Positions 5,805-9,870 of a DNA stretch of 9,870 nucleotides are shown piece after piece. Origin of the DNA: a virus. Taxonomy: Duplodnaviria > Heunggongvirae > Uroviricota > Caudoviricetes. Numbering within the stretch: the stretch's first letter is position 1; each line of letters starts with the position of its first letter. The translations under genes and the position numbers were made by a program. The DNA lies in IMG/VR virus record IMGVR_UViG_2713896780_000030. One strand, written 5' to 3'. Below the pieces are notes generated by a model. It was not told the DNA's origin. It made no database searches and saw only the letters and a list, made by a program, of their open reading frames with translations.

Positions 5805-8199
5805 GCCCCCATTGGCACTGAGTCAGCGCCCGGAGAAATAGTCTGACTAAAATATCATCACTACGTTTGCTTCCGACTTTTAGTTTCATATCAGAAAACA
5901 CCGTCCGGCAATAGAGAAAATCACACCAGTCATCCCAGTCAGCCAGGGTCTTCAGTGTATGCGTTTGCCGCCAGTCGTCGAAAAGAGAGCGTTGCTGCAG
6001 AGCCTCTTCCATATTATCCCATGGGCGGGAAGACATCAGTAAATGCCCTTCATTCATGGCGGGCTGTACGGGCTGGCGTTTGAAATCGAATTCCAGATTA
6101 AGACGGATATCCTGTTCCCGGGATACCAGATCGCTTTCCGACAGCCACATCTCACGCGTTGATATCAACGTACTTCGGGATAACGTCTGACCGGGTAAAC
6201 GATTAAGGTAAAGATCTACCATATAGTCGTTATAGTCACTGCGTGGAATATCGGCAGGAGGTTTGACGCCAGCCCTGGCATGAACAACAGGTTTTCCCTG
6301 AATAGCTCTATAGGTTAACTGCCCCCGGGTTTTCATGGCGATAAGCTGGCTGACCTCATGCTTACATGTCAACATTGATGAACCCGGATCAACAATATCG
6401 CACAGCGACTGGAAGCGGGAAGACAGTGGACCGCTCATGTTTATCTTGTTAAGTGGGCAATTTGTCAAAAAGCCATCGGTTGTGACGCTGACAACCGATG
6501 AATCAGAAGGCAAAGCATTCATGAGTTCCCCGACAACGGCGCGGATAAATCCCGTCACATGCGCAGCAAAGAATGGCTGAGTAACCGATGATGGTGGGAG
6601 GGATCTGTTTAATCCACGGGCAGTATCAAAGGCGGTTTTGGCGCGAAGGCCCTGAGCAAGTTTGCCATAAAGCGAGTTGCCAATTTCTTTCCAGAATTTC
6701 TCCTCCAGAGAACCTTTAATATGGCGATTACGGTTCTCACGGACCTGTTGAACAAAGGGAAGAAACACCGATGTTGATTCGCTGTTATGTGGGGAGGTGT
6801 CACAGATCCAGGGGACGATGATCCCATTATGGATCGTCATCTCTGCCCCGAGCGACAGAGCAAGTTCGATTTCAGGTGCCGTTGCCCATGATTCGCCACT
6901 TAATGGAAAGAATAACCCATATTGATCGGTCCGAACCGGCAGGCTGGGATAGGGAACTGATTCCGGGAACTGAAATGTGACAAACGCAAATCCCATTACA
7001 TGCCCACAGTAATCGTCCGGATTTTTACTGAGGCGGATGTTTCCGTAATCGGGTATGAGGATATCTAATAGCCCGGTGGTATACGCTCCAGCCAGATCGT
7101 AGTCATACCAGTGATCAGACGGTGTAACCCCCATCATAAAACACTCATTGCGTCCGCCGTGGTAACAGTTGATCGGGAACGTTTCAAACAGCTCTCTTGA
7201 AGGAACACTGGCGGGGTTTTTAATCGTCCGGAATGCCTGTTTCTCCGTGAGCCAGAGTTCACGGGTTTTAATGTGTGTCCCAAGGCAGACTTCAGGAGAC
7301 ATATTGTTTTCTTTAAGTGTTTTGGTGAACCGTGAAACTGCCATCGCCCCGATGGTGGCGGGGACACGATCAATCATCAGCTCCCGGGCGCAAAAATTGC
7401 GAACCTGTAAAGCATAACGAACCGCAATCTCGGCATCCCGCAGAGCATAGGCTTCAAACCCTGCTCTGTCGCCCAGAAGATATTCACGCATATTGGTTAT
7501 GGAATAAGGTGCAGGAATGGTCAGTTTGGGAAGACCCAGTAATTCACCACATTCAGCCAGACCCATACCCCCGGGAGTGATAAGCAGTGTATCGATGAAA
7601 GCTACGTTACTGCAACGCGGAGGGGAAGTTCGTTTGTCAAACATTATCTGTTCAGTCTTTACGCGACGTTCCTGCTGTTCATCAAAATCGATACCGTAAC
7701 GATTTTTGAAGCTGCTGACAGTACCGCGTATTCCTTTCAGAAGAATTTTGTAGTCTGACCAGAAATTGGCAAAGGAGGTGATATCCGCACGAATGAAATG
7801 CGCATATATATTAATAATACCGGGCCATTTTGTAATCACACCCGTTTCAAGAAGCGGTGTAATCGTTTGACAGAGAAAGTTCTTAAAAGACAGCCGGGAT
7901 TTTTTCTGTGAGTCAGGTGGATAGATAATGTTCGATATACCTGTATTATCGGGTAAGACAACATAACTCTGATATGACAGAATATCATTCTGTTGTGTTT
8001 CAGGATTGAAAACATATTCGGTATCAAAACCGATATGGAGTGTCAGGTCACTTGAAATAACAGATACTTTTTTTGATGCAGGTGGTATCACAGGATAATC
8101 ATCAAGCGTTTTAGGTCTTTTAAGATTGAGCGCTGGCTCTGAAGTCACGGACTGATACCCCGATGCGGCAGCGAGGATGTCCTGCAAATTATTGCTCAT
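5644..8199 (-). CDS. Family-B DNA polymerase with 3'-5' exonuclease domain, primer-independent PolB (piPolB)-like, 851 aa
   Basis: ATG at 8199 with GGAG 7 nt upstream; in-frame upstream stop at 8266-8268. Ordered motifs: Exo I FD59TE61Y (nt 8017-8025); Exo III Y251ALRD255; motif A-like YDYD368LAGAYTT (nt about 7096-7104); motif B K504EIGNSLYG512 (nt 6664-6690); motif C-like SVTTD575GF (nt 6475-6477); KTRG at residues 623-626 (nt 6322-6333) replacing KxY. Last about 27 codons are antisense to the integrase fragment. Confidence 0.9.
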   Translation of the reverse strand: MSNNLQDILAAASGYQSVTSEPALNLKRPKTLDDYPVIPPASKKVSVISSDLTLHIGFDTEYVFNPETQQNDILSYQSYVVLPDNTGISNIIYPPDSQKKSRLSFKNFLCQTITPLLETGVITKWPGIINIYAHFIRADITSFANFWSDYKILLKGIRGTVSSFKNRYGIDFDEQQERRVKTEQIMFDKRTSPPRCSNVAFIDTLLITPGGMGLAECGELLGLPKLTIPAPYSITNMREYLLGDRAGFEAYALRDAEIAVRYALQVRNFCARELMIDRVPATIGAMAVSRFTKTLKENNMSPEVCLGTHIKTRELWLTEKQAFRTIKNPASVPSRELFETFPINCYHGGRNECFMMGVTPSDHWYDYDLAGAYTTGLLDILIPDYGNIRLSKNPDDYCGHVMGFAFVTFQFPESVPYPSLPVRTDQYGLFFPLSGESWATAPEIELALSLGAEMTIHNGIIVPWICDTSPHNSESTSVFLPFVQQVRENRNRHIKGSLEEKFWKEIGNSLYGKLAQGLRAKTAFDTARGLNRSLPPSSVTQPFFAAHVTGFIRAVVGELMNALPSDSSVVSVTTDGFLTNCPLNKINMSGPLSSRFQSLCDIVDPGSSMLTCKHEVSQLIAMKTRGQLTYRAIQGKPVVHARAGVKPPADIPRSDYNDYMVDLYLNRLPGQTLSRSTLISTREMWLSESDLVSREQDIRLNLEFDFKRQPVQPAMNEGHLLMSSRPWDNMEEALQQRSLFDDWRQTHTLKTLADWDDWCDFLYCRTVFSDMKLKVGSKRSDDILVRLFLRALTQCQWGLMLKDKKSYSCKEVAEWLTSEGYSVTCQKAPAGSPGPEGRSNVSSPDEVQCIA

Positions 8200-8248
8200 A
8201 GTTAACTCCGAAAAAATGCCGGGAGTTCGTCCCCCCCGGCATAATGAA

Positions 8249-8887
8249 TCAGGATTTAATGACGTCTACTACAGCTTTGAAAATATCATTTTTGCGAGAT
8301 TCATTATCTGCATAGATAAAGGAAACGAGTTTCCTGCCTGCTTTAATCAGGATACCACGTTGCGTCTTTTCCACAGACGGGGTAACGTGTGCAGATAACA
8401 GACAATGTTCATGTAAATGAAGAAACTTTTTTGAGGCGTAGCCGCCATGTAATCGGGCTTGAATGTCAAGATACATATCATCAAGAGAACCGGGTTCTCC
8501 TGATTCACTCAATACTGGATAACCCTTCTTATCAAAAAGGTTAAGGATAGATTTACTATCATGTTCGAACAGGGTAACACCGTAAATGTATTTCATTCGA
8601 AAGGTGAGGGAATCGGTGGTGTAGACCTCCTCCTGACGATTGAAATTTTTGAGACGCCTGGCTAATTCATTAAAAACAGCACGAGCAGTAGCCGTGTCCT
8701 GCAGGGTGTAGGTATAAAGTATGAAGCCATCTGTGCCGATGAGCTTTACTAAGTTGCCCATAATCGTGATAGCGAGAACTAATGCAAAGGACAGATATTT
8801 TTCATCGTTGTCTACAGCTGTGCTTGCTGATTCGGGAAGAATGTTCAGTGCATTATTAGCGTTATTTTCCGTGTTCTTAGTAACCAT
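8249..8887 (-). CDS. Hypothetical protein (212 aa), immediately upstream of and co-oriented with the polymerase gene
   Basis: ATG at 8887 with AAGGTGA RBS about 6 nt upstream. Stop lies about 50 nt before the polymerase start, suggesting co-transcription. No recognisable motif. Confidence 0.6.
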   Translation of the reverse strand: MVTKNTENNANNALNILPESASTAVDNDEKYLSFALVLAITIMGNLVKLIGTDGFILYTYTLQDTATARAVFNELARRLKNFNRQEEVYTTDSLTFRMKYIYGVTLFEHDSKSILNLFDKKGYPVLSESGEPGSLDDMYLDIQARLHGGYASKKFLHLHEHCLLSAHVTPSVEKTQRGILIKAGRKLVSFIYADNESRKNDIFKAVVDVIKS

Positions 8888-9030
8888 TTATATCACCTTT
8901 AAGTTTGTTTTGACGATGTGCATTTTCCCAATCAACAATATCGTCAAGAGAGAATCGTATAGCCCGCCCAATTCTGATGAAGGGCGGGAGTTTTCCGGGA
9001 TTGCGAGAAATATCTGACGCAACCGTGGAT

Positions 9031-9053
9031 GCAGAAAGATTAAATCTTTCTGC
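9031..9053. promoter_or_regulatory. Perfect 23-bp palindrome (candidate operator or recombinase binding site)
   Basis: GCAGAAAGATT-A-AATCTTTCTGC has 11-bp arms around a single centre base. It lies between the recombinase stop (9085) and the start of the 212-aa gene (8887). No T tract follows on either strand, so it is unlikely to be an intrinsic terminator. Confidence 0.35.
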
Positions 9054-9084
9054 GAACTGCTTTCACGAATCACAGATCATTGGT

Positions 9085-9870
9085 TCATTTTTTCGTGTCA
9101 TAACTTTCAATGACCTGAGAAACCACTGCGTGTGATGTCGCTGCATTGTGAAAAGCGTAGCGACGGGTCGCCGTGAGTGAATGGTGATTTAGCAGATGGG
9201 AAGCGATTGCAATATCCCCGGTCGCCTGTAGTACCCGGGTGGCAAAGGTACGGCGCAGGTCATGCATCCGCAGGTTATCAATGTCGGCATCCCGGCAAAT
9301 ACGGGCAAAGGTTGCACGCGGATATGCCAGAGGGCGGGCATTGTCGGTTAGTCGCGGAAAAATGTAAGTTTTGCTGAGCATCAGGTCCTGCTGGCACTGG
9401 ACAACTGCAATGGCTGGAGGTGCAAGTGGGCAGGTGAAAGGGTGTCCGGACTTTGTATCAGGCAGTATGAGTTGATGCATATCCAGGTGCCAGTACTCCC
9501 ATTTCAGGGTACATACCTCACCAATACGCATCCCCGTATAAAGAGCAAGCAATATAGAATCAGCTGCCGGTGTTTGCAGCGCTGTTGCCGCGTCAATAAA
9601 GCGCGGGATTTCTGTCGCTGATAGTGTGCGATAGCGAATGTTATTTTCTTTCAGATAGCGGACATGTGACATCGGGGAATGCGTGATCCATCCAGCACGT
9701 ACTGCCAGAGAGCATATTTTGGACAATATTGCGAGGATACGGTTTACTGTTGACGGACGTAATTTTTCCCGTAAGCCAGCAGCATATTGTTCTAGTTCTC
9801 CTGCCGTGATGTCGCGAAGTTGAACCGCCCCGGGTTTCCTGGAGAGTGTTTTATCTGTGAACTCAGGCTG
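9085..9870 (-). CDS. Tyrosine recombinase (XerC/phage-integrase family), partial; N-terminus beyond window end
   Basis: Reading frame is open from the window edge (QPEFTDKTLSRKPGAVQLRDITAGELEQYAAGL...). Contains GMRIGEVCTLKWE (Arg box), HDLRRTFATRV (HxxR) and HHSLTATRRYAFH (catalytic Tyr). Stop TGA at 9087-9085. The 9726 start in the ORF track is an internal TTG. Confidence 0.85.
   Translation of the reverse strand, partial: QPEFTDKTLSRKPGAVQLRDITAGELEQYAAGLREKLRPSTVNRILAILSKICSLAVRAGWITHSPMSHVRYLKENNIRYRTLSATEIPRFIDAATALQTPAADSILLALYTGMRIGEVCTLKWEYWHLDMHQLILPDTKSGHPFTCPLAPPAIAVVQCQQDLMLSKTYIFPRLTDNARPLAYPRATFARICRDADIDNLRMHDLRRTFATRVLQATGDIAIASHLLNHHSLTATRRYAFHNAATSHAVVSQVIESYDTKK

Follow-up and report, generated by a model that had tools for sequence, protein, structure and literature searches.

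orf212, a lineage-restricted core gene of Enterobacterales pipolins with a possible tie to the excisionase module

A gene between recombinase and polymerase in a damaged pipolin

The window analysed here, a 9,870-nt stretch of DNA from the IMG/VR virus record IMGVR_UViG_2713896780_000030, contains a pipolin integrated beside the leuZ tRNA-Leu gene and, within it, an orphan gene (orf212) next to the gene for piPolB, the primer-independent family-B DNA polymerase. orf212 is an ATG-started open reading frame (ORF) of 212 codons at 8249..8887 on the minus strand, and its product is 100% identical to WP_022581683.1 ("hypothetical protein"; E. coli O145:H28 and other strains). We characterized it by ORF call, coding-sequence identity, family, dN/dS, an AlphaFold2 model and fold searches. 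An initial annotation, made from the sequence alone, had described the gene as co-oriented with the polymerase, equipped with a good ribosome-binding site and ending about 50 nt before the polymerase start. All of this was borne out: both genes lie on the minus strand (which that annotation did not state), AGGTGA stands 5 nt 5′ of the orf212 ATG (AAAGGTGATATAAATG) as the gene's own Shine–Dalgarno site, and a spacer of 49 nt separates the stop codon (8249–8251) from the piPolB ATG at 8199. The Shine–Dalgarno region (AAAGGTGATATAA before the ATG; 8888..8900, minus strand), read from the sequence and conserved in the alignment, lies inside the 3′ end of the reading frame of Xis, a predicted excisionase.

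The same annotation had orf212 following the recombinase gene. A recombinase gene does lie upstream, namely the 3′ part of an IntP2-type tyrosine recombinase gene that runs off the window end (9085..9870, minus strand; Pfam Phage_integrase and tblastn, residues 114–376), but it does not adjoin orf212 directly. Between the two stands a remnant of Xis (HTH_17/TIGR01764-like), comprising codons 6–66 and the stop (9062..8877, minus strand), which was recognized by tblastn, by DNA alignment and by HTH_17 and TIGR01764 matches in relatives, and whose stop overlaps the orf212 start by 11 nt. This remnant has no start codon left. A 143-bp deletion relative to other pipolins, with its junction at 9062..9063 (alignment A4), took out the IntP2–Xis intergenic region and Xis codons 1–5. 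The genomes that match exactly are all O145 strains or relatives, and none has a helix-turn-helix (HTH) gene annotated at the Xis position.

On the other side of orf212, the piPolB gene spans 851 codons (5644..8199, minus strand; ORF call, Pfam and tblastn) and has a GGAG Shine–Dalgarno site at 8206–8209. Residues 1–824 are native and residues 825–851 are foreign (5644–5727), with the last 42 residues of the full-length 866-aa protein lost. The foreign tail is the antisense strand of the IntSXT recombinase gene, fused through deletion, and IntSXT itself is left as its N-terminal Arm-DNA-binding part in an overlapping ORF (5226–5804, plus strand). The truncation and the remnant fit the published 'deleted' pipolin subtype, which has a truncated IntSXT and an adjacent prophage, and the region likewise matches the described enterobacterial pipolin core, in which 'IntP2 followed by an excisionase' lies near piPolB (PMC11551731). 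An intact relative, from strain G1/2, carries in order a tyrosine recombinase (376 aa), an HTH gene (66 aa), orf212, the DNA polymerase, a second-recombinase remnant, a 246-aa gene and tRNA-Leu. The unit in the window is thus damaged, with Xis lacking its start and promoter region and piPolB its C-terminus, and here expression of orf212 is possible only on read-through transcripts and from the gene's own ribosome-binding site.

Despite this setting, orf212 has the marks of a genuine gene: its homologues are 200–221 aa long at identities down to 28%, its dN/dS is purifying and its AlphaFold2 model is confident. In the E. coli-type clade pairwise dN/dS was 0.35, and a second clade gave 0.24; the corresponding values were 0.16 and 0.12 for IntP2, 0.04 and 0.09 for Xis and 0.29 and 0.14 for piPolB. 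These figures indicate that orf212 is under purifying selection, weaker than that on its three neighbours, its dN/dS being the highest of the four. That orf212 might be a spurious or decaying ORF without function is hardly credible. Frameshifted (179 aa) and truncated (159 aa) variants do occur in public assemblies, and the element around orf212 in the window is itself degraded, but selection is purifying in two clades, length is kept across sequences just 29% identical and a confident structure prediction was obtained from co-evolution. The 179-aa variants P0009 and P0010 depart from the frame exactly at the A-run 8427–8432 (minus strand, codons S152–K154), where they have A5 and not A6, through either a slipped-strand mutation or a homopolymer sequencing error; in variant P0012 the frameshift lies upstream of the A6 run.

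Distribution and divergence of orf212

When 1.8 billion cluster representatives were searched exhaustively with phmmer, orf212 had 18 matches; a profile search gave 67. All matches with an organism given belong to Enterobacterales (Escherichia, Citrobacter, Enterobacter, Leclercia, Lelliottia, Hafnia and Klebsiella aerogenes), and tblastn against 72,556 plasmids and 50,697 phage records found none. Among 5,426 complete E. coli genomes, 281 carry orf212 against 296 with piPolB (~95% of the latter), always on the chromosome, with the IntP2–Xis–orf212 junctions intact in 274 and the orf212–piPolB junction in 264. Full-length orf212 was found directly upstream of piPolB in 39 fetched loci (37 by the family hidden Markov model (HMM), plus L103 and L104); the other loci of this lineage are three short contigs with fragments or a frameshifted copy and a few with almost no DNA upstream of piPolB. 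Synteny with piPolB across pipolins, a check named in the initial annotation, held in part. The order IntP2–Xis–orf212–piPolB, all on the same strand, was present in every Enterobacterales locus with upstream DNA, but at loci whose piPolB is ≤ 44% identical the family HMM gave no match even at E ≤ 10.

These distant pipolins were taken from viral and metagenome scans, the genome-contig scan and the piPolB protein search having given close relatives only. Their slot upstream of piPolB holds ORFs of 64–165 aa without family matches, Xre-type HTH genes or a divergently oriented recombinase. The small ORFs aligned in register with the orf212 repeats, but at a probability < 5% and HMM E ≥ 0.2, and we claim no homology. 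The small piPolB plasmids of Staphylococcus and Fusobacterium contain no orf212-like gene. With no homologue detectable at distant piPolBs, on plasmids or on phages, orf212 is constant within a single pipolin lineage and not across piPolB elements generally, and we regard it as a lineage-restricted core gene of Enterobacterales pipolins.

This distribution bears on the suggestion, made in the initial annotation, that orf212 is an accessory factor of the replication module. Such a protein would bind piPolB or its template and serve processivity, origin or template targeting, or the binding of single-stranded DNA or ends as the excised circle replicates. In every locus of the lineage orf212 directly precedes piPolB in the same orientation, 264 E. 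coli genomes have this junction intact, some distant pipolins have small ORFs (64–165 aa) co-oriented with piPolB in the same slot, and the orf212 of clade C, one of four clades in the lineage, scores weakly (12–16 bits) against the Pfam model of the 9-1-1 clamp protein Hus1. As a sliding clamp or 9-1-1 factor (PCNA, Hus1), orf212 showed neither clamp-fold domains nor an above-cut-off HMM match. Moreover, recombinant E. coli piPolB is by itself capable of processive synthesis, strand displacement, translesion synthesis and de novo priming, and mitochondrial pipolins encode piPolB only (PMC5695915), so that no partner is obligatory for processivity or priming. We consider an accessory factor unlikely. 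The proposal made in the initial annotation thus stands in part: orf212 is a conserved core gene beside piPolB, but a role as a general polymerase cofactor is less likely, and we favour a tie to the Xis module.

Two earlier studies have probably encountered the gene. To judge by frequency alone, orf212 probably corresponds to 'group_6', a hypothetical gene that 93% of E. coli pipolins carry (Flament-Simon et al., Sci Rep 2020, PMC7385651, Table S3), and it is probably also among the 'orphan' core genes described for gammaproteobacterial pipolins (Mateo-Caceres et al., NAR 2024, PMC11551731), with which it shares a fixed place in the conserved IntP2–Xis–piPolB core and a lack of annotation. orf212 is neither named nor analysed in either paper; its Enterobacterales-limited family, three-module fold, link to Xis and the conserved hairpin before piPolB are new here.

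Pairwise identities among six clade representatives were compared gene by gene. IntP2 and piPolB identities correlated at r = 0.99 and Xis correlated with either at r = 0.44–0.47, whereas orf212 correlated with Xis at r = 0.85, with piPolB at r = 0.78 and with IntP2 at r = 0.72. Clade C is an outlier for Xis (52%) and orf212 (28–29%), yet closer for IntP2 (79%) and piPolB (71%); clade B has the opposite pattern. At the level of sequence this points to orf212 divergence tracking Xis and not IntP2 or piPolB. Where the element is intact, orf212 begins inside the stop region of Xis, with an overlap of 11 nt in E. coli-type clades and of 17 nt in clade B, so that its translation would be coupled to that of Xis. 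The identity pattern and the overlapping reading frames suggest that Xis and orf212 form one evolutionary and expression unit between recombinase and polymerase.

orf212 also diverges 2–3 times faster than piPolB (70% versus 87%, 46% versus 69%, 36% versus 60% and 29% versus 71% identity). Such rapid divergence would be explained if orf212 were a conflict gene placed in the core, that is, an anti-defence, exclusion or immunity factor guarding the element or the host against competing elements. In keeping with this, orf212 outpaces its neighbours (29% identity where piPolB has 71% and IntP2 79%), its dN/dS exceeds theirs and pipolins are defence islands (PMC11551731). However, its dN/dS is far below 1, its position is fixed in the conserved core and not in the variable cargo region, it was not found outside pipolins, on plasmids or on phages, and it has no PADLOC match, all of which makes a conflict gene quite improbable.

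Predicted fold of orf212

The initial annotation saw no recognisable motif in orf212, and Pfam, NCBIfam, PHROGs and, at E 0.1, the defence models of PADLOC-DB indeed returned no match. Searches of 29 family members against Pfam at E 10 gave sub-threshold noise alone (Hus1, UPF0425_C and AbiJ_NTD5), with no match to the LytTR model (PF04397) in any member, and the orf212 profile found nothing meaningful among PDB sequences. Excisionase-type HTH families (HTH_17, TIGR01764) were not matched either; the orf212 model is mostly β, and that domain is carried by the neighbouring 66-aa gene.

Structure prediction, also named as a check in the initial annotation, was informative. An AlphaFold2 model built on the 29-sequence family alignment reached pLDDT 90.6 and pTM 0.84, with four of the five models at pLDDT ≥ 88, and single-sequence prediction was useless (pLDDT 42). 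Apart from the N-terminal ~20 residues, which are disordered and absent from the 200-aa clade, the model consists of three tandem units (residues ~23–82, 88–149 and 155–211), each of about five β-strands and a long helix, that align mutually in register, weakly at the sequence level (hhalign E ~0.01). By resemblance only, this predicted arrangement is a three-module PH-like (β-sandwich-plus-helix) architecture. Compared with the PH-like superfold, including tandem-PH proteins and bacterial PHb, the units are short (~62–67 residues, five strands); there is no sequence similarity, Z is < 8 and no solved structure fits the full three-unit arrangement. Two candidate features were rejected: a membrane helix at residues 32–51, called from the single-sequence model, is contradicted by the alignment-based model and the polar clade C sequence, and the long repeat proteins P0029 and P0031, retrieved by phmmer, match a short hairpin-like motif alone.

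Foldseek comparison of the model with the PDB ranked ComE and a LytTR domain at the top (E 7e-4 to 7e-3, TM 0.23–0.42). In a viral library the top match was a phage 'DNA binding regulator', with phage LytTR proteins lower (E from 1e-3, best TM on target ~0.5). Conceivably, then, orf212 could be a LytTR-like regulator that binds pipolin DNA, for example near the spacer hairpin or the xis promoter, and controls transcription of piPolB or of the excision genes. Like orf212, the LytTR domain of AgrA and ComE (PF04397) has an all-β fold that includes a short helix; this domain ranks first in the PDB, and related phage regulators head the viral library. However, orf212 gives no HMM match and low TM-scores, lacks both a response-regulator receiver and a membrane partner, and is not a basic protein; such a regulator also seems unlikely.

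The spacer hairpin and a possible role beside Xis

The initial annotation held co-expression of orf212 with piPolB to be probable, which the spacer between them makes doubtful. It contains an intercistronic hairpin of 10 bp, 7 of them G–C pairs, with a 7-nt loop and a following T6 (8210..8242, minus strand; hairpin 8242..8216, T6 8215..8210; fold z-score −2.9). A GC-rich hairpin is present here in all four clades with sequences unrelated between clades, and in clade C one pair is compensatory (UA in 3 sequences, CG in 3); an Rfam scan of the window found nothing. Judged by its sequence, the hairpin of the E. coli clade, that of the window included, qualifies as a canonical intrinsic terminator. 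Its end lies 11 nt short of the piPolB Shine–Dalgarno site, and a consensus scan revealed no promoter-like site in the gap of ~16 nt between terminator and piPolB start codon, so piPolB expression must depend on read-through. With a conserved hairpin or terminator in the spacer, simple co-expression of the two genes is doubtful.

Similar structures occur elsewhere. A hairpin, often a full intrinsic terminator, lies directly upstream of piPolB in many unrelated lineages (the window at 8210–8242, L003, L005, L012–L017, L018, L042, L048, L049, L052, L053 and L055), and terminator-like sites were found in 10 of 62 unique upstream windows compared with 2% of control windows, the lineages not being independent. 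This suggests read-through as a general gate on piPolB expression. In a group of distant aquatic-metagenome pipolins (L059, L064, L067, L069–L071 and L074), a conserved inverted repeat (GTAAAAGTT..GGTATGGGTGT....AACTTTTAC) followed by a T-run overlaps the predicted piPolB start, and may be a structured leader or a terminator.

We propose, tentatively, that orf212 has a binding, adaptor or regulatory role connected with the Xis module, possibly in coupling excision to polymerase expression. This is a possible role, and its mechanism would be as follows. The product, a soluble, non-enzymatic protein of three tandem PH-like modules, would be encoded in a two-gene unit with Xis, and the hairpin would probably end or attenuate most transcripts before piPolB. 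Produced alongside Xis upon induction of the element, the orf212 protein would serve as a binding or adaptor subunit and would act through protein–protein contacts on the excision or regulation machinery (Xis/IntP2) or on a step that licenses piPolB, and not as a general DNA-binding or processivity factor of the polymerase. The integrase–excisionase (AlpA/HTH_17) modules of P2/P4-type islands offer a parallel: like the pipolin, they have an integrase, a small HTH_17 gene and overlapping downstream genes, then a terminator, and the gene after the small HTH gene is under its control. AlpA-type circuits work by antitermination, and pipolin Xis may itself be an excisionase, an activator or an antiterminator. 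Unlike the pipolin core, no such module is known to carry an orf212 homologue.

Several observations weigh against a role tied to Xis. Clade C has a gap of 31 nt between Xis and orf212 in place of the overlap. The distance correlations come from six taxa with non-independent pairs, and a single recombination event or faster change in clade C could account for them. No element of the lineage parts orf212 from Xis or from piPolB, so co-occurrence cannot discriminate between the two partnerships. The T-run is absent after the hairpin in clades B and C, where the hairpin may for this reason not terminate transcription. No detectable homology points to a binding partner of orf212, and the repeated first rank of LytTR DNA-binding domains in Foldseek would favour DNA binding.

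A more specific arrangement would be a switch in which Xis, orf212 and the conserved hairpin gate piPolB, with orf212, made with Xis on induction, serving either to activate or inhibit piPolB specifically or, as a cofactor, to let transcription pass the terminator that would otherwise silence the polymerase gene. If this were true, DNA synthesis would begin only after excision of the island, and the type of switch would be previously undescribed; we hold it to be unlikely. In a variant of it, orf212 would be a triplicated form of the small single-module slot proteins of other gammaproteobacterial pipolins, and hence an ancient partner of piPolB diverged beyond recognition. The question on which orf212 bears is how pipolins excise, replicate and transfer, and how a self-priming polymerase is controlled. 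Pipolins are widespread defence islands, and orf212 is the most constant uncharacterised gene beside piPolB in E. coli; its pairing with Xis, its confidently predicted three-module, binding-type fold and the hairpin provide concrete entry points to polymerase control. Should orf212 be just a lineage-specific accessory, its description would still improve the annotation of ~5% of E. coli genomes.

Further features were observed around this core. Upstream of IntP2, a hypothetical gene of 270–390 aa without a Pfam match is kept across clades at 34–42% identity (L002, 17577–18386; L003, 7088–8260; L005, 7222–8364), and the very distant pipolin L021 has a 380-aa ORF in a comparable position (5373–6515). 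In the window, the 246-aa gene (4435–5175, minus strand) has no Pfam or NCBIfam match and as its sole match the unannotated PHROG phrog_29550; in the pipolin literature it is named a family-4 uracil-DNA glycosylase. At 4093–4193, the att repeat, which is the 3′ half of leuZ (tRNA-Leu), is followed by 50 masked N, with no tRNA called by ARAGORN. A prophage-type integrase gene (2983..3984, plus strand) adjoins this att repeat, consistent with a prophage co-integrated at the same tRNA.
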